DNA of 64,000 nt, taken from sequence record PZ402301.1. One strand, 5' to 3'. Shown here one piece after another: positions 4,339 to 62,893 of this stretch (within the stretch, counting starts at the first letter, position 1; each line of letters begins with the position of its first letter). The notes beneath the pieces were generated by a model, which worked only from the letters and a program-made list of their open reading frames with translations, did not search any database and was not told where the DNA came from. The DNA is from a phage. The translations under genes and the position numbers were made by a program.

Positions 4339-4356
4339 GGCCTGTTTCGGCAGGCC
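4339..4356 (+). terminator. intercistronic GC stem-loop after gene 18 (GGCCUG..CAGGCC)
   Basis: 6-bp GC-rich inverted repeat 17 nt after gene 18 stop; no U-run, so more likely attenuator or processing structure than strong terminator. Confidence 0.35.
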
Positions 4357-4930: not shown

Positions 4931-4937
4931 AATGAAT

Positions 4938-4951
4938 GGGGAGAAATCCCC
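4938..4951 (+). other. stem-loop GGGGA-GAAA-UCCCC (GNRA tetraloop) just after gene 19 stop
   Basis: 5-bp GC stem with GAAA loop, 8 nt downstream of gene 19 stop. Confidence 0.4.
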
Positions 4952-4962
4952 ATCCTGCTTAA

Positions 4963-10317: not shown

Positions 10318-10332
10318 TCTTTGACGATTTAA

Positions 10333-10361
10333 GGGACCTTCGGGTCCCTTTAGTTGTTTTT
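10333..10361 (+). terminator. rho-independent terminator after gene 23: GGGACC-UUCG-GGUCCC followed by U-rich tract
   Basis: 6-bp GC stem closing a C(UUCG)G tetraloop 16 nt after gene 23 stop, followed by TTTAGTTGTTTTT. Confidence 0.7.
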
Positions 10362-11684: not shown

Positions 11685-11690
11685 AACAAA

Positions 11691-11706
11691 GGGACCTTTC
11701 GGTCCC
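11691..11706. terminator. bidirectional terminator hairpin between convergent genes 24 and rnlB
   Basis: GGGACC-TTTC-GGTCCC lies exactly between the two stop codons (11682-11684 and 11714-11716), with A-run 5' and T-run 3'; reads as GAAA tetraloop on the minus transcript. Confidence 0.65.
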
Positions 11707-11713
11707 TTTTTAT

Positions 11714-13208: not shown

Positions 13209-13277
13209 GTTATCGAGTTGGTGCCATTATATACATCGTTTTCTGATTGTGTTTTGTGTGCTTTCAAAATGAAGAAA

Positions 13278-13291
13278 GGGGCCGAAGCCCC
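13278..13291 (-). terminator. GGGGC-UUCG-GCCCC hairpin downstream of hoc on the minus transcript
   Basis: On minus strand reads GGGGCUUCGGCCCC followed by UUUCUUCAUUUU; 6 nt after hoc stop. Confidence 0.55.
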
Positions 13292-13296
13292 TGATA

Positions 13297-15167: not shown

Positions 15168-16679
15168 ATGACTGACATTAAAGTACATTTTTATGATTTT
15201 AGTCACGTGAGAATTGATTGTGAAGAAAGTACATTTCATGAACTCCGTGATTTCTTTAGCTTTGAAGCTGATGGGTATCGTTTTAATCCGAAGTACAAAT
15301 ATGGTCACTGGGATGGACGAATCCGTCTTTTAGATTATAATCGCCTTCTTCCGTTTGGCTTAGTCGGGCAAATTAAAAAGTTCTGCGATAACTTTGGCTA
15401 TAAAGCCTGGATTGACCCGCAGATTAACGAAAAAGAAGAATTATCAAGAAAAGATTTTGATGAATGGCTTTCTAAATTAGAAATTTATTCAGGAAATAAA
15501 AGAATTGAACCGCACTGGTATCAAAAAGATGCAGTGTTCGAAGGATTAGTTAATCGTCGTAGAATTCTTAATCTTCCAACATCCGCAGGTAAATCTTTAA
15601 TTCAAGCTTTGCTCGCACGTTATTATTTGGAAAATTATGAAGGTAAAATTCTTATCATTGTTCCAACAACTGCTCTGACAACTCAGATGGCTGATGACTT
15701 TGTTGACTATCGTTTATTCAGTCATGCAATGATAAAGAAAATCGGTGGTGGAGCATCAAAAGATGATAAATATAAAAATGATGCGCCAGTCGTTGTTGGT
15801 ACATGGCAAACTGTAGTAAAACAGCCGAAAGAATGGTTCTCACAGTTTGGAATGATGATGAATGATGAATGCCATCTTGCTACAGGAAAAAGTATTTCAT
15901 CTATCATATCAGGTTTAAATAACTGCATGTTCAAATTCGGTTTGTCTGGTTCATTACGCGATGGCAAAGCCAATATCATGCAGTATGTTGGAATGTTCGG
16001 TGAAATATTTAAGCCAGTAACGACTTCTAAATTAATGGAAGATGGACAAGTAACTGAGTTAAAAATTAATAGTATTTTTCTTCGCTATCCTGATGAGTTC
16101 ACTACTAAATTAAAGGGAAAAACTTACCAAGAAGAAATAAAAATTATTACTGGGCTCAGTAAAAGAAATAAATGGATCGCTAAATTAGCTATTAAACTTG
16201 CACAAAAAGATGAAAACGCTTTTGTCATGTTTAAACACGTATCGCACGGTAAAGCTATTTTCGATTTAATTAAAAATGAATACGATAAAGTTTATTACGT
16301 ATCAGGGGAAGTTGATACCGAAACACGCAACGTAATGAAAACCTTAGCTGAAAACGGTAAAGGAATAATTATAGTAGCTAGTTATGGTGTATTTTCTACT
16401 GGTATTTCAGTTAAAAATCTGCATCACGTTATTTTAGCACACGGTGTTAAATCTAAAATTATTGTATTGCAAACAATAGGTCGCGTATTACGTAAGCATG
16501 GTTCTAAAACAATCGCAACGGTCTGGGACCTCATTGATGATTGCGGTGTTAAGCCAAAATCTGCTAATACGAAAAAGAAATACGTTCATTTGAACTATCT
16601 TTTAAAACACGGCATTGATCGTATTCAGCGCTACGCAGATGAAAAATTTAATTACGTAATGAAAACAGTTAATTTATAA
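15168..16679 (+). CDS. uvsW: UvsW DNA/RNA helicase (SF2)
   Basis: 503 aa; helicase motifs LPTSAGKS (Walker A) and DECH (Walker B); T4 UvsW size. Confidence 0.92.
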   Translation: MTDIKVHFYDFSHVRIDCEESTFHELRDFFSFEADGYRFNPKYKYGHWDGRIRLLDYNRLLPFGLVGQIKKFCDNFGYKAWIDPQINEKEELSRKDFDEWLSKLEIYSGNKRIEPHWYQKDAVFEGLVNRRRILNLPTSAGKSLIQALLARYYLENYEGKILIIVPTTALTTQMADDFVDYRLFSHAMIKKIGGGASKDDKYKNDAPVVVGTWQTVVKQPKEWFSQFGMMMNDECHLATGKSISSIISGLNNCMFKFGLSGSLRDGKANIMQYVGMFGEIFKPVTTSKLMEDGQVTELKINSIFLRYPDEFTTKLKGKTYQEEIKIITGLSKRNKWIAKLAIKLAQKDENAFVMFKHVSHGKAIFDLIKNEYDKVYYVSGEVDTETRNVMKTLAENGKGIIIVASYGVFSTGISVKNLHHVILAHGVKSKIIVLQTIGRVLRKHGSKTIATVWDLIDDCGVKPKSANTKKKYVHLNYLLKHGIDRIQRYADEKFNYVMKTVNL

Positions 16680-16692
16680 GGGCTTCGGCCCT
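16679..16692 (+). other. small C(UUCG)G hairpin overlapping uvsW stop
   Basis: AGGGC-TTCG-GCCCT between uvsW and uvsW.1. Confidence 0.4.
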
Positions 16693-16704
16693 TTGGAGAA
16701 AAAG

Positions 16705-25205: not shown

Positions 25206-25209
25206 CAAT

Positions 25210-25227
25210 GGGGACCGAAAGGTCCCC
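25210..25227. terminator. GGGGACC-GAAA-GGUCCCC hairpin between convergent genes 54 and alt.-3
   Basis: 7-bp GC stem with GNRA loop 5 nt after gene 54 stop, followed on plus strand by TATTTTTATTTA. Confidence 0.6.
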
Positions 25228-25233
25228 ATATTT

Positions 25234-25585: not shown

Positions 25586-27642
25586 TACATCTTGAACTTT
25601 TTAGACATTCCGTTGATGTTAACCAAAGAAGCTAAGATTTGAGAAACTTCGTTTTCCTCTTCTTTTGATTCTTCTACAAGGAATTGATTAAACCCAGCCA
25701 TTGGACGAACTTCACCAGTTTCCATCAGATGATCGCCATCATATACCGATTCTTCTAATTGTTCAGAAGGAGGAACGATTGTACCTTCGATTAAATACTT
25801 GTTATAAGCAGTTTCTTTCATCATGTACGTGCTCACTTTATTAATCTTCAGCAAAATTCCACGTGGTAAAATAACTTCAGCTTCTGACGGAAATCCTGAT
25901 AAATGACCCGGAACGATAACTTTGATTCGCTCAGCTCCTTTAATTACCATACCTACGCTAGTTTCAGCATCTTCATTCGCATAAGCAGAATGACTGCCCA
26001 TATGCATCAAATCTTCTGCGTCAACTGAACCTTCTCCTTCACCAGAAAATACTGCACTGGAATCATCTAGAGCCATATAGTTTTTACCATACTCACCGAA
26101 GATATTTGGTTTAAGCGATGTGGATACGAAGTTCTTAAAATAGAACATTTTATTTTCAATATTATGACGTAAAGTTTTAAAGGTAACTTCTTGGCCACGG
26201 TAAAGCGTAGTTCCTGGAGGAAGAACTGATCCTTTGGCAAAAGCAGAATCCATCGTCTCGATGTGTTTAATAGCTCGTTCCATATATTCTTCACGAGTAG
26301 AATCTGGTTTACCCAAGAGGAACGAGTTCATTTCAACATATGAATCTGCACAATAATCTTCAATTACATCAGACTCAGCTTGAGTTAATCCTTTTGGAGT
26401 TACTTCAGTACTTGCATATTCATACGCTTGAGAAGCAGACTCATTAATCAATTTATAAACGCCATTCATGACAAATTGAACAATAGCTACCTTTTCATCT
26501 GGTGTGGCTTTAGAACCTTTAACTAAATCATTGACAATTTTCTTAATAACATCAAAGCTATTAGAAATATTAATGTCAGCAAGATCGCTTAAAATTTTAT
26601 CAGTTTTATAATCAAAAAATTCTTTATTCTTTAAATATTCTTGAGAACCTTGATATGTTATATCGCTCTGTAATTTAATAGATGGATCACGTAAACGCGC
26701 ATGGGCCAATGCAATATGATTTCGGAAGCTTTCTAGTTCATAATCACTAGATTTAAAACGAGAAGCACTCCTCATACCACCGATAGCTCCTTTGCTGAAG
26801 TTTGAACCAACCTGAATAACGCCGGAGTTCATTGGTCCTTCTGCTTTATATACCGGAACTTTAGATTCAAACTCTTGATATTTCTTAGCAGCGAAGCTAT
26901 CACCCTGAAGTGAAGCATCGACAGTAGAGTATTGAGCTTGTGCTGCTAATCGACGACTAATTTTAGTTTTCTGAATAACAGCTTGATCCGTACGCTTATC
27001 ATTTTCTAGAGCAATAGAAGCGGCAACAGCAACAGCTTTAGGAACAGCATTGCCTGTTTTAACATCTACATAAACATCACCAACCTTTGATTCAACCTTT
27101 GTGAATAACTCAGTTGAAATAGGAGGTACACCTGGAATGTCTTCTAAATTGGCATTTTTACGGTAAACCATAATATATGCATACTTTTTATCATAGTCCC
27201 AGATTTCCTTTAAAAGAACATATCGACCTGCTCCTTTAGTACGTACTAAACGGTCAGCAATAACTTGCATTTGACGAGTTGCACCGTTTGTTTTACTCTT
27301 TAGTACGCGGAATAGGCATGCGTCAATTTTATACTGTTTCATTGTTTGAAGAGCAGTATCAAAAACCGCATTAATGACACCAATTGGATTTCCACCCAAG
27401 TTTTTAAGTTTAACTAATGATAGTTTCTCATTAACACCTATCATTACAATATGCATCATTTTATCGCCTGGCTTAACGTTTTTATTTGTATCACCGCCAG
27501 AGGTGTATGTACAAAATCTAAATCCAGGAAGCACACTTTCTTCACCGGCTTGAATAGCAAAAATTTGAGGGATTTTATGCTTAGGATTTAAATTAACAAC
27601 CGGCGCCGAAGCGCCGTCAAATAATTCTGTAATAAGTTCCAT
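25585..27642 (-). CDS. Alt-like ADP-ribosyltransferase paralog (685 aa)
   Basis: Starts MELITELFD like Alt; N-terminal half closely similar to the adjacent 698-aa gene; C-terminal half has ART-like motifs (LYRGQ, FVSTSL, EAEVILPRG) but diverges. Confidence 0.85.
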   Translation of the reverse strand: MELITELFDGASAPVVNLNPKHKIPQIFAIQAGEESVLPGFRFCTYTSGGDTNKNVKPGDKMMHIVMIGVNEKLSLVKLKNLGGNPIGVINAVFDTALQTMKQYKIDACLFRVLKSKTNGATRQMQVIADRLVRTKGAGRYVLLKEIWDYDKKYAYIMVYRKNANLEDIPGVPPISTELFTKVESKVGDVYVDVKTGNAVPKAVAVAASIALENDKRTDQAVIQKTKISRRLAAQAQYSTVDASLQGDSFAAKKYQEFESKVPVYKAEGPMNSGVIQVGSNFSKGAIGGMRSASRFKSSDYELESFRNHIALAHARLRDPSIKLQSDITYQGSQEYLKNKEFFDYKTDKILSDLADINISNSFDVIKKIVNDLVKGSKATPDEKVAIVQFVMNGVYKLINESASQAYEYASTEVTPKGLTQAESDVIEDYCADSYVEMNSFLLGKPDSTREEYMERAIKHIETMDSAFAKGSVLPPGTTLYRGQEVTFKTLRHNIENKMFYFKNFVSTSLKPNIFGEYGKNYMALDDSSAVFSGEGEGSVDAEDLMHMGSHSAYANEDAETSVGMVIKGAERIKVIVPGHLSGFPSEAEVILPRGILLKINKVSTYMMKETAYNKYLIEGTIVPPSEQLEESVYDGDHLMETGEVRPMAGFNQFLVEESKEEENEVSQILASLVNINGMSKKFKM

Positions 27643-29770: not shown

Positions 29771-29777
29771 AAATTAA

Positions 29778-29791
29778 AGGCCCGAAGGCCT
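29778..29791 (-). other. AGGCC-UUCG-GGCCU hairpin at 3' end of small ORF upstream of alt
   Basis: 5-bp stem, C(UUCG)G tetraloop on the minus transcript, overlaps stop of 29792-29980 ORF. Confidence 0.4.
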
Positions 29792-29980
29792 TTAGTAATC
29801 TAGTGGTAAGAGAGTACGATATATTTCAAACTTTGGTCCTTTTTCATAGGCATCAAATGTTTCTGTAAATTTATTATAAGCATATGCATCTACAAATTCG
29901 AGAATGACTTGTGATACAGAAGTAGAAACATCTCCACCTTCTTTTTGAGCAATGACAATTGTTTCTAAGTAAGCTTTCAT
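29792..29980 (-). CDS. hypothetical small protein between gene 30 and alt
   Basis: 62-aa ORF whose ATG overlaps the gene 30 stop (ATGA), suggesting translational coupling. Confidence 0.6.
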   Translation of the reverse strand: MKAYLETIVIAQKEGGDVSTSVSQVILEFVDAYAYNKFTETFDAYEKGPKFEIYRTLLPLDY

Positions 29981-33680: not shown

Positions 33681-33697
33681 AGTATTTTCCTCAGTAA

Positions 33698-33711
33698 GGG
33701 GCCGAAGCCCC
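33698..33711 (-). other. GGGGC-UUCG-GCCCC hairpin between 30.6 and 30.5
   Basis: Same 14-nt hairpin sequence as at 13278-13291; C(UUCG)G loop on the minus transcript. Confidence 0.45.
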
Positions 33712-33720
33712 TATTTTATT

Positions 33721-34098: not shown

Positions 34099-34111
34099 GA
34101 TGTTTAATTGC

Positions 34112-34151
34112 GGTACAGGTATATAATATCATATCCTGTACCAAAGTAAAC
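34112..34151 (-). promoter_or_regulatory. predicted early promoter (GTTTAC -35, 17-nt spacer, TATTAT -10) overlapping an 8-bp inverted repeat GGTACAGG/CCTGTACC
   Basis: Minus strand: tGTTTACtttggtacaggatatgaTATTATatacctgtacc, upstream of 30.6 RBS. Confidence 0.5.
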
Positions 34152-34564: not shown

Positions 34565-34591
34565 AATAAAAAAGGACTCCCGAAGGAGTCC
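34565..34591 (-). terminator. rho-independent terminator (minus strand): GGACUCC-UUCG-GGAGUCC followed by U-run
   Basis: 7-bp stem, UUCG loop, then UUUUUUAUUUU on the minus transcript; 6 nt after stop of the small basic ORF. Confidence 0.65.
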
Positions 34592-34596
34592 TCAAC

Positions 34597-37991: not shown

Positions 37992-38021
37992 TGGTAGAGC
38001 TATAATATCACAACTCTACCG
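37992..38021 (-). promoter_or_regulatory. predicted early promoter (GTTTAC -35, 18-nt spacer, TATTAT -10) overlapping inverted repeat GGTAGAG/CTCTACC
   Basis: Minus strand: aGTTTACtttacggtagagttgtgaTATTATagctctacc upstream of cd.3. Confidence 0.45.
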
Positions 38022-41359: not shown

Positions 41360-42947
<1,588 letters not shown>

Positions 42948-42955
42948 AATAAAAT

Positions 42956-42969
42956 GGGCCTTGCGGCCC
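42956..42969 (-). other. GGGCC-GCAA-GGCCC hairpin between nrdB stop and denA start
   Basis: GNRA-loop hairpin on the minus transcript sitting between a GGAG and the denA ATG; may modulate denA translation. Confidence 0.45.
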
Positions 42970-42974
42970 ACTCC

Positions 42975-46460: not shown

Positions 46461-46777
46461 AAGTCCTCAACTTGAAAATCGTCTTTAAACAATCGGTTAA
46501 CTATATGAGCTATTATATCACCATGACACGGCTTTGGTTTACATGTGCATCCTAGCCTCATTCCACGTAAAGGCTCTAAATGTGCTTTAGTTATTTCTCC
46601 GGATTTAATTCGACGTATAAAATCTTTTTTGAATAATTCAATGGCAGCCTCCCGGCTGCCAGCATCTTTACCGACGTAATTTCCCCAAAATGTACCACGG
46701 TGAATATTAACATCAAAGTCGGATTTATATTTATTCACTACCCGGCATAGACGGCCCGCGTGGTAATAATTCGTCAT
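46451..46777 (-). CDS. nrdA.1: hypothetical protein (positional nrdA.1)
   Basis: 108-aa ORF with ATG; overlaps nrdA start by 10 nt. Confidence 0.6.
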
Positions 46778-49714: not shown

Positions 49715-49768
49715 TTTATTCTCCTTAGTTGATAGGGTAATAGTATCATACTACTACCCTTCTGTAAA

Positions 49769-50134: not shown

Positions 50135-50178
50135 TGTGTTTTCCTCATTTTAATAGGGGCTTGATAGCCCCTTAATAA

Positions 50179-50514: not shown

Positions 50515-50533
50515 GGGGACCTCTAGGGTCCCC
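50515..50533 (-). terminator. rho-independent terminator after gene 32 (minus strand)
   Basis: GGGGACC..GGUCCCC stem followed by UUUUUUAUUUCAAAAAUUUUUU on the minus transcript, 22 nt after gene 32 stop. Confidence 0.65.
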
Positions 50534-58823: not shown

Positions 58824-58828
58824 ATTGA

Positions 58829-58855
58829 GGGAGCCTTCGGGTTCCCTTTTTCTTT
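58829..58855 (+). terminator. rho-independent terminator after gene 35: GGGAGCC-UUCG-GGUUCCC plus U-run
   Basis: 7-bp stem (one G-U pair), UUCG loop, followed by TTTTTCTTT, 6 nt after gene 35 stop. Confidence 0.65.
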
Positions 58856-62862: not shown

Positions 62863-62866
62863 TAAG

Positions 62867-62882
62867 AGGGGCTTCGGCCCCT
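62867..62882 (+). other. AGGGGC-UUCG-GCCCCU hairpin between gene 37 stop and gene 38 RBS
   Basis: 6-bp GC stem with UUCG tetraloop 5 nt after gene 37 stop; no strong U-run, overlaps the region immediately 5' of the gene 38 start. Confidence 0.45.
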
Positions 62883-62893
62883 TGGGGGTTTAT

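Follow-up and report, generated by a model that had tools for sequence, protein, structure and literature searches.

It was in hairpins of the T4 type that the UUCG tetraloop was first seen to be exceptionally stable, and the class is now textbook material. Tuerk et al. (1988, PNAS 85:1364), as relayed in a later article (PMC8948821), reported that CUUCGG hairpins are abundant in the intergenic regions of T4 and that they stop reverse transcriptase. Work from the Gold laboratory in 2020 added that in T4 more than half of the sense-strand copies of CTTCGG, and none of the antisense copies, have complementary bases on either side (PMC7165471), and T4 terminators have been described as a GC stem, a loop of 4 nt and poly(U) (PMC2988022). 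The hairpins analysed here carry the same motif in the same genome family, are likewise mostly intergenic and restricted to the sense strand, and differ in nothing essential from those of T4.

Split ribosome-binding sites were reportedly described for T4 genes 38 and 25 by Nivinskas et al. in 1999 and by Malys and Nivinskas in 2009. Experiments at these two genes show that the effective spacing falls from 22 nt to 5 nt at gene 38 and from 27 nt to 11 nt at gene 25 (PMC3014915).

We examined a 64,000-nucleotide stretch of phage DNA (PZ402301.1; the window), in which an original prediction, made from the letters alone, had picked out a family of GC-rich stems closing UUCG or GNRA loops at gene boundaries. 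It is highly probable that they belong to the extra-stable C(UUCG)G and GNRA tetraloop hairpins of T4-type phage mRNAs, lying between genes, acting in RNA and falling into four anatomical groups. T4 itself has identical or orthologous hairpins at the 18–19 and 19–20 junctions, after gene 23, between the convergent genes 24 and rnlB, and at hoc–24.3, alt.1–alt, 30.9–30.8, nrdB–denA, 35–36 and 37–38. Given these hairpins and the abundance and sense bias already published for T4, what the original prediction found is correct but amounts to rediscovering, in a new isolate, a feature already known from T4. The sole part that may be new is a conserved, proposed split ribosome-binding site combined with a terminator between nrdB and denA, which would at best add one more member to a known kind.

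Results

The window is a T4-like genome segment

The window is a Tequatrovirus segment that runs from gene 16 to gene t and comes from a close relative of T4, with which it is syntenic. BLAST comparison of three large pieces of the window with phage genomes returned 98–99% identity over the full length to phages EO1, vB_EcoM_Nami and EcNP1, with identity of only about 94–97% at the tail-fibre end. Annotation was transferred from Nami and T4 and combined with our own map of open reading frames, giving 85 genes and an intergenic share of 3.8%; the T4 RefSeq record carries no terminator or promoter features. The plus strand encodes 16-17-18-19-20-67-68-21-22-23-24, after which rnlB-24.2-24.3-hoc-inh lie on the minus strand and uvsW-uvsW.1 on the plus strand. 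Genes uvsY.-2 through 26 are again on the minus strand and 51 through 54 on the plus strand. A long minus-strand block begins with alt.-3, a paralogue of alt, alt, alt.1, 30, 30.1–30.9, rIII, 31 and cd, and continues with pseT, alc, rnlA, denA, nrdB, nrdA, td, frd, 32, 59, 33, dsbA and rnh; the window ends on the plus strand with 34-35-36-37-38-t.

Stable tetraloop hairpins are enriched between genes

All 11 hairpins of the original prediction exist where it had placed them. Folding of the intergenic regions, which it had proposed as a check, placed each folded hairpin within both the minimum-free-energy (MFE) and the centroid structure of its spacer (RNAfold). Comparable hairpins that it had left out occur at 27601-27616, 46642-46661, 50155-50172 and 50515-50533.

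To set a chance baseline, we generated 200 dinucleotide-preserving shuffles of the window. The window contains 118 perfect tetraloop hairpins with stems of 5 bp or more, which is not unusual, and 16 with at least four G-C pairs, where the shuffles contain 2.3 ± 1.5. UUCG or CGAA loops number 8 against 0.01 in the shuffles, and there are 5 loops of GNRA or complementary type, against 0.13; a chance origin is rejected by these counts. Twelve of the 16 GC-rich tetraloop hairpins fall in intergenic DNA, a 3.8% share of the window's length (binomial p = 1e-14). Hairpins of -8.8 kcal/mol or better occupy the transcribed strand in 18 of the 35 intergenic gaps that measure 20 nt or more, and none of the three divergent, promoter-bearing gaps has one. 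The C(UUCG)G hairpins have nearest-neighbour energies of -8.8 to -14.9 kcal/mol, and we expect that the loop, capping a short G-rich 5' arm and a C-rich 3' arm, would nucleate fast and very stable folding. Folding z-scores of the intergenic regions are modest (-1.0 to -4.0) because dinucleotide shuffles preserve GC blocks, and we therefore relied on the genome-wide hairpin counts instead. Comparing the entire window with Rfam at gathering thresholds returned no family, the hairpins being too small for curated families.

Strictly defined, C(UUCG)G hairpins begin at 10331, 13277, 16678, 27601, 29775, 33697, 34572, 58827 and 62866. GNRA loops are found in the hairpins at 4936 (GAAA, plus strand), 25208 (GAAA, plus), 11688 (GAAA, minus), 42955 (GCAA, minus) and 46642 (GGGA, minus). 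The stem at 4339-4356, which had been counted among the C(UUCG)G hairpins, does not belong there: its UUCG is closed by U·G, or equivalently it forms a UUUCGG hexaloop, and it is a near-member only.

Strand asymmetry and covariation point to RNA

CTTCGG or CCGAAG occurs 31 times in the window, placing CUUCGG on the sense strand 14 times and on the antisense strand 17 times. When a hexamer was scored as a hairpin if at least three further Watson-Crick pairs flanked it, 8 of the 14 sense copies and 0 of the 17 antisense copies qualified (Fisher p = 4e-4), bearing out the claim that the transcribed strand always yields the UUCG form; the sense count becomes 9 of 14 if the G·U stem at 58835 is included. 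The stems at 4339 and 58827 contain U·G or G·U pairs that turn into A·C mismatches on the opposite strand.

For comparison we drew on contigs of T4-like phages, taking about 120 loci in the neighbourhood of gp24, gp19, nrdB, DNA ligase, gp35 and UvsW. The termini of the neighbouring proteins, matched across phages, served to delimit each orthologous junction, and its hairpin of greatest stability was kept. At same-strand junctions, which yielded 81 distinct hairpins, UUCG outnumbers CGAA by 41 to 1 and GNRA its complement by 13 to 1, a sense bias of 54:2 for stable loops. G·U pairs are also more frequent in the sense orientation (32 versus 17), a count that the detection method biases and to which we give little weight.

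Among these relatives the position of the hairpin is conserved and its stem varies by compensatory changes. The stem after gene 23, which is AAGGGACC/GGUCCCUU in the window, appears elsewhere as AAGGAGCC/GGCUCCUU, GGGAGCC/GGCUCCC, AUGGGAGAC/GUCUCCCAU and AAAAGGCAACC/GGUUGCCUUUU. In alignments loop-anchored on the best hairpin, an arrangement that inflates the percentage paired and cannot create changes on both sides, 99% of cells are paired at 23–24 with 6 of 8 pairs altered on both sides (13 distinct orthologues), and 95.6% are paired at nrdB–denA with 4 of 6 pairs so altered. At both junctions the pairing collapses when the partner is shifted by one column. Orthologous hairpins still persist where the flanking proteins are down to 56–80% identity. 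Separately, loop inversions recur between near-identical phages, and loops differing by a single base occur as UUUG and UUAG in relatives and as UUCA in T4.

Strand-specific loops at same-strand junctions and compensatory stem changes argue, on this sequence evidence, that selection acts on RNA and not on DNA. Together with the sense-only G·U pairs, they uphold the original reading of the hairpins as RNA elements at gene boundaries. Action in DNA, through cruciforms, protein-binding palindromes or hot spots of recombination or homing, would lead one to expect strand symmetry, and is hardly credible given the 41:1 ratio of UUCG to CGAA, the restriction of CUUCGG hairpins to the sense strand, the G·U pairs that read as A·C mismatches on the other strand, and the conservation of pairing without conservation of stem sequence. 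What such a view has in its favour is that perfect GC-rich inverted repeats are able to extrude, that loop inversions between relatives imply occasional hairpin formation in DNA, and that mobile genes adjoin some of the hairpins, as segD does after the T4 gene 23 hairpin.

Hairpins followed by a U-tract resemble intrinsic terminators

A terminator was called on the transcribed strand where a run of 8 nt containing 5 or more U began 0–2 nt past a GC-rich stem-loop. The scan returned 10331, 11688 and 25208 (each of the latter two on both strands), 13277, 29775, 34572, 50515 and 58827, together with the intragenic hairpin at 27601; all but the last match the GC stem, 4-nt loop and U-tract of E. 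coli and T4 intrinsic terminators. The expectation that only some hairpins would be followed by U-runs was correct, since 10331, 11688, 13277, 25208, 29775, 34572 and 58827 pass the scan and 4339, 4936, 16678, 33697 and 62866 fail it.

The hairpin between genes 23 and 24 (10331..10350, plus strand; predicted at 10333-10348) follows the major capsid gene 23 and is terminator-like. It reads AAGGGACC UUCG GGUCCCUU and then UAGUUGUUUUU, with an energy of -13.3 kcal/mol and z = -3.2; its stem has GGGACC where that of T4 has GGGAACC. Relatives keep the U-rich tail UUGUUGUUU with the hairpin, and TATAAATA, the late promoter of gene 24, comes 15 nt downstream. Judged from these features, its likeliest role is that of a partial terminator, presumably of limited efficiency, that would free gene 24 from coupling to the highly abundant gene 23 message.

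Five further junctions share this anatomy. Between hoc and 24.3 (13277..13292, minus strand), AGGGGC UUCG GCCCCU is followed by UUCUUCAUUUU; this terminator-like hairpin contains the first copy of a repeated 14-mer, and UUCG is the loop in 7 of its 15 distinct orthologous hairpins. The alt.1–alt hairpin (29775..29794, minus), UAAAGGCC UUCG GGCCUUUA, overlaps the alt.1 stop codon and is identical in T4; its U-rich tail continues into a late promoter, TATAAATA, 4 nt downstream. Also identical in T4 is the 30.9–30.8 terminator (34572..34593, minus), GAGGACUCC UUCG GGAGUCCUU and then UUUUAUUUU, which reaches -14.9 kcal/mol. The gene 32 terminator, between 32 and frd.3 (50515..50533, minus), consists of GGGGACC CUAGA GGUCCCC and then UUUUUUUAUU, and more distant relatives have a UUCG loop at this position. 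Between genes 35 and 36 (58827..58848, plus; -14.6 kcal/mol), GAGGGAGCC UUCG GGUUCCCUU precedes UUUCUUU, with a late promoter TATAAATA 6 nt past the stem. The G·U pair of this stem is valid on the plus-strand (sense) RNA only, and 4 of the 5 distinct orthologues have UUCG.

We regard these hairpins at 23–24, hoc–24.3, alt.1–alt, 30.9–30.8, 32–frd.3 and 35–36 as a first group, probably rho-independent terminators of partial efficiency. The late-promoter consensus TATAAATA lies on the same strand 1–24 nt after the hairpins at 4339, 4936, 10331, 29775 and 58827. Where a terminator precedes it, a highly expressed gene would end its own transcript and the next gene would restart, a stop-then-restart arrangement between late genes; the terminal hairpin would presumably also shield the 3' end from exonucleases.

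Two hairpins lie within coding sequence. The one in the alt paralogue (27601..27616, minus), CGGCGC UUCG GCGCCG followed by GUUGUUAAUU, covers codons 9–14 of the full-length paralogue and is conserved in close relatives and absent from alt proper. The other, inside nrdA.1 (46642-46661, minus), has a GGGA loop.

Convergent junctions carry probable bidirectional terminators with other loops

Where genes 24 and rnlB converge, a bidirectional terminator (11688..11709, both strands) has the form AAAGGGACC UUUC/GAAA GGUCCCUUU, with a U-tract on each strand. The loop of this hairpin, predicted at 11691, reads UUUC on the plus strand and GAAA on the minus strand, and both strands are transcribed here because the genes converge. 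Relatives have GAAA, UUUC, GCGA, UCAC, UUAC, GUAA or AAU at this position. The second such terminator, between 54 and alt.-3 (25208..25229, both strands), is AUGGGGACC GAAA/UUUC GGUCCCCAU, with -17.2 and -16.3 kcal/mol on the two strands; in the 98%-identical phage Nami its loop is inverted, with UUUC on the plus strand. Across the two junctions the loops comprise GAAA/UUUC, GCGA, UCAC, UUAC, GUAA and the 3-nt forms AAU/AUU and UAU/AUA, and UUCG occurs at neither in any phage compared. We propose that this second group terminates transcription both ways, with GNRA-type or near-palindromic loops.

A third group precedes start signals instead of U-tracts

Six hairpins lack a U-tract on the transcribed strand, in which they differ from intrinsic terminators: at 4339, 4936, 16678, 33697, 50155 and 62866 the first 8 nt past the stem contain one to three U. 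At 18–19 (4339..4356, plus; -11.3 kcal/mol), GGCCUG and CAGGCC enclose U UUCG G, three U fall in the first 8 nt, and the late promoter TATAAATA begins 1 nt past the stem. This hairpin is identical in T4, and relatives keep a hairpin abutting (T)ATAAATA with other stems and loops, even at 56–65% gp19 identity. At 19–20 (4936..4953, plus), AUGGGGA GAAA UCCCCAU has a GNRA loop and is likewise identical in T4; a U-tract is present on the antisense strand only, and TATAAATA follows 24 nt downstream.

The remaining four stand before a ribosome-binding site. The hairpin between uvsW and uvsW.1 (16678..16693, plus; -8.8 kcal/mol), AAGGGC UUCG GCCCUU, overlaps the uvsW stop codon and leads, with no U-tract, directly into U-GGAG-N6-AUG. 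It is confined to close relatives and missing in more distant ones, and is therefore dispensable. At 30.7–30.6 (33697..33712, minus), AGGGGC UUCG GCCCCU contains the second copy of the 14-mer, lacks a sense U-tract and is followed 4 nt downstream by the Shine-Dalgarno (SD) sequence GAGG; T4 has UUCA in place of the UUCG loop. The stem at this junction in relatives is GGAGGC/GCCUCC or GGGGC, the loop UUCG or GAAA, and the hairpin always abuts UGAGGAAAA; U(0-4)GAGGAAAA follows the stem. Between frd.3 and frd.2 (50155..50172, minus), AGGGGCU AUCA AGCCCCU has no U-tract, and an SD, GAGG, lies 8 nt downstream. Finally, the 37–38 hairpin (62866..62883, plus; -12.5 kcal/mol), GAGGGGC UUCG GCCCCUU, contains the third copy of the 14-mer and is followed by GGGGG-UUUAU-AUG; in relatives GGAGG follows the hairpin.

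Each of these six hairpins thus has a stop codon on its 5' side and an SD or late promoter as the next signal on its 3' side. From that position, their most likely roles would be to block 3' exonucleases once the RNA has been processed or read through, and to insulate the adjacent SD, holding it unpaired. REP-type and other 3'-stabilising hairpins of bacterial mRNAs offer a parallel in anatomy, as stable stem-loops just after stop codons in polycistronic transcripts, although the hairpins of the window are much shorter, single and capped by special tetraloops. Roles in processing and stability are plausible on this sequence evidence; they, like the role proposed below for the denA hairpin, are suggested by anatomy and analogy.

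Might all of the hairpins simply be terminators, canonical or weak, with no separate role in translation or stability? The stems and loops of hairpins with and without a U-tract are indistinguishable, T4 mobE and segF provide documented cases of weak terminators inside genes (PMC2988022), and the core of the denA hairpin described below is followed by AUUUUAUU and annotated as a terminator in several GenBank records. We nevertheless consider this unlikely: in five of the hairpins the 8 nt that follow the stem contain no more than 3 U, and destabilising the orthologous hairpin of T4 gene 38 lowers translation initiation (PMC3014915). Moreover, what relatives conserve after the U-poor stems is an SD (30.7–30.6, 37–38) or a late promoter (18–19), not a U-run.

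Less probable still is that the hairpins without a U-tract are decaying or neutral remnants of terminators, or by-products of a mutational process acting on palindromes, and have no present function. The absence of the uvsW–uvsW.1 hairpin from more distant relatives would fit such decay, as would the single-base loop variants UUUG, UUAG and, in T4, UUCA, and the flips of loop orientation between close relatives. Neutral palindromes would not, however, keep a strand-specific loop, and the orthologues persist with compensatory changes and a 54:2 sense bias between flanking proteins only 56–80% identical. We retain for this group the barrier and insulator roles as the favoured, if provisional, reading.

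The repeated 14-mer looks like a convergent solution

The 14-mer GGGGCCGAAGCCCC or its complement had been said to occur four times. It has three copies, at 13278-13291, 33698-33711 and 62868-62881, all sharing the 16-mer AGGGGCTTCGGCCCCT; the count of four holds for a 12-mer, as 16679-16692 reads AGGGCTTCGGCCCT and shares just the 12-nt core GGGCTTCGGCCC. We rejected mobility or copying as the origin of the 14-mer, since its three copies sit in unrelated flanking sequence and the GGGGC-UUCG-GCCCC stem arises independently at other junctions in other phages, including nrdB–denA in four of the loci from relatives (L039, L049, L050 and L056). From its distribution, the repeat looks like a preferred solution reached convergently.

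A hairpin may bridge a split denA ribosome-binding site

The element between nrdB and denA (42951..42974, minus strand; core hairpin 42955-42970) reads UAA (the nrdB stop)-GGAG-U-GGGCC GCAA GGCCC-AUUUUAUU-AUG (the denA start). The energy of the hairpin is -10.7 (core) to -15.4 kcal/mol, with z = -4.0, and the distance from SD to AUG is 23 nt in linear sequence and about 7 nt with the hairpin folded. T4 has the identical junction, and so does T2 (100% identity). That a hairpin separates GGAG from the denA start had been offered as an example, and the case proves stronger than stated: all 22 distinct relatives keep the order of a UAAGGA-type SD overlapping the nrdB stop, a hairpin, 8–10 U-rich nt and AUG. 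The loop is UUCG in 11 of the 16 distinct hairpins among denA orthologues, and the purine-poor stretch between hairpin and AUG contains no SD in any of the 22 distinct orthologues.

We defined a split ribosome-binding site by an SD more than about 15 nt from the start, a stable bridging hairpin that restores a spacing of 5–11 nt, and the lack of a canonical SD. The denA site has all three features and, like those of T4 genes 38 and 25, combines a distant SD with a conserved bridging tetraloop hairpin; it differs from them in the terminator-like, U-rich tail of its hairpin and in an SD that overlaps the nrdB stop codon. Our literature search on denA found no description of a split ribosome-binding site. 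The gene 38 case itself is not reproduced in the window. In T4 proper, a UUCG hairpin lies between the GGAG and AUG of gene 38 with the published 22-nt spacing, and the site fits the definition. The window has a T2-type gene 38, whose hairpin, predicted at 62867, does lie 5' of the gene but upstream of a canonical purine run, GGGGG, 5 nt before AUG, rather than between SD and AUG, so that the definition does not apply there.

As the sole member of the fourth group, the denA hairpin would act as a split ribosome-binding site by shortening the 23 nt between the only SD and the AUG to about 7 nt, and its U-rich tail could also terminate a part of the transcripts. The 42955 core was not called by the terminator scan even though AUUUUAUU follows it, because the maximal stem uses up the U residues. 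Some GenBank records label the hairpin a terminator. In the MFE fold of the T4-type sequence, GGAG also pairs with UUUU through G·U, an extension that relatives do not conserve and that would, if formed, weakly mask the denA SD rather than present it.

We tentatively propose a dual element, a reading we hold to be possible though somewhat less than even in likelihood. Some transcripts would terminate at the hairpin just before the denA AUG, making it a partial nrdB terminator, and in read-through RNA the same hairpin would bridge the AUG to the sole SD, which overlaps the nrdB stop; it may in addition shield GGAG from cleavage by RegB. Reinitiation after termination of nrdB translation is an alternative to the split site. 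The start of denA bears on the proposal as well. The T4 RefSeq record places it at a GTG inside the 5' arm of the hairpin, giving 144 aa, and this upstream start is not conserved; the accepted form of the protein begins MKEI, as in the crystallised EndoII construct, which has 136 aa (PDB 2WSH).

Discussion

The feature described here is the T4 hairpin family as it appears in a new isolate, and its parts call for different degrees of confidence. The presence of the hairpins, their enrichment over chance, their placement between genes, their strand asymmetry, their covariation and the presence or absence of a U-tract are properties of the sequences themselves. Efficient termination, stabilisation and enhancement of translation are what we infer from them.

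Should the dual element between nrdB and denA be real, EndoII output would be pegged at a low, constant proportion of that of NrdB, and the annotation of T4 denA from a GTG would be wrong. More generally, the hairpins mark transcript ends and gene boundaries, and they account for the existence of several intergenic spacers. They also serve as a warning of errors in sequencing or annotation within GC hairpins, of which the fused uvsW open reading frame in the T4 reference genome and the T4 denA GTG start are examples. For T4 specialists, the points of interest are a universally conserved split ribosome-binding site that may operate at denA, bidirectional terminators free of UUCG, and loop orientations that have flipped repeatedly among near-identical phages.

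Loop orientation on conserved stems

Comparison of the window with related phages revealed 10 cases in which close relatives share an identical hairpin stem and carry loops that are exact reverse complements of one another. Among them are the bidirectional convergent terminators 24><rnlB (11688-11709) and 54><alt.-3 (25208-25229), which both alternate between GAAA and TTTC loops; at the latter, the window carries GAAA, whereas Nami, a 98%-identical phage, carries TTTC. The hoc|24.3 hairpin similarly appears with either a TTCG or a CGAA loop among close relatives. The relative pairs exhibiting such flips, denoted by locus, are L009/L004, L008/L006, L103/L105, L002/L070, L115/L117, L104/L118, and L114/L099. 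Reverse-complementary loops on the same stem suggest recurrent, hairpin-mediated inversion of the loop via template switching.

Hairpins and the T4 reference

Differences between the T4 RefSeq and the window fall exactly within GC hairpins (L121:2150-2300 and L121:10715-10742 in the T4 reference, compared with 16678-16693 and 25208-25229). Relative to the window, the reference lacks a GG in the uvsW|uvsW.1 hairpin, leading to a fused uvsW ORF of 587 aa, and a CC in the 3′ arm of 54><alt.-3. The hairpins themselves are the probable source of both gaps, through band compression on old sequencing gels. Both the T4 RefSeq (NC_000866, 137951) and a mechanical call in the window (42947-42971, − strand) start denA at a GTG within the 5′ arm of the nrdB|denA hairpin, yielding 144 aa; the construct of PDB 2WSH and conservation in relatives support a downstream ATG (136 aa) as the true start.

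Arm composition and antisense U-tracts

Sense-strand hairpins have G-rich, SD-like 5′ arms throughout (e.g., 10331, 42951, 58827, and 62866), with the motifs AAGGG, GAGG, and GGAG, and AAGGAG in relatives. Their 3′ arms are C/U-rich, and this polarity is identical at every junction; it may reflect terminator composition alone. The arms strikingly resemble SD and anti-SD sequences. Two hairpins without a sense-strand U-tract, at 4934-4955 and 33697-33712, carry a good antisense U-tract (on the − and + strand, respectively), AUUUUAUU in both, and could serve as stops for antisense transcription.

Hairpins within genes and at early promoters

Codons 9-14 of the full-length alt paralogue contain a perfect hairpin of the C(UUCG)G type (27601-27616, − strand), with the sequence CGGCGC UUCG GCGCCG followed by GUUGUUAAUU; it encodes DGASAPV where Alt has a DEDTTLPI segment. 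Close relatives share this hairpin, which is similar to the terminators described near the 5′ ends of the T4 genes mobE and segF, within their coding regions (PMC2988022). A strong GNRA-loop hairpin, UGGCAGCC GGGA GGCUGCCA (46642-46661, − strand; −15.9 kcal/mol), is located within nrdA.1; the start of nrdA follows about 180 nt downstream.

Three of the eight − strand early promoters of the GTTTAC type sit within long hairpins (37993-38020, 49734-49760, and about 34110-34150). These have 12-bp stems of about −15 kcal/mol that covary among relatives, with the −10 element occupying the loop and 3′ arm. Their G·U pairs are valid on the sense RNA only, and folding would be confined to read-through transcripts. 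They are outside the tetraloop family.

Insertions downstream of gene 23

Several relatives (L116, L105, L104, L119, and L026-L028) harbor a 350-560 nt insert at the 23|24 junction, directly 3′ of the gene 23 hairpin. T4 carries the homing-endonuclease gene segD at the same place, downstream of this hairpin (L120:10511-11324). Mobile genes have repeatedly inserted at the position marked by the gene 23 terminator.
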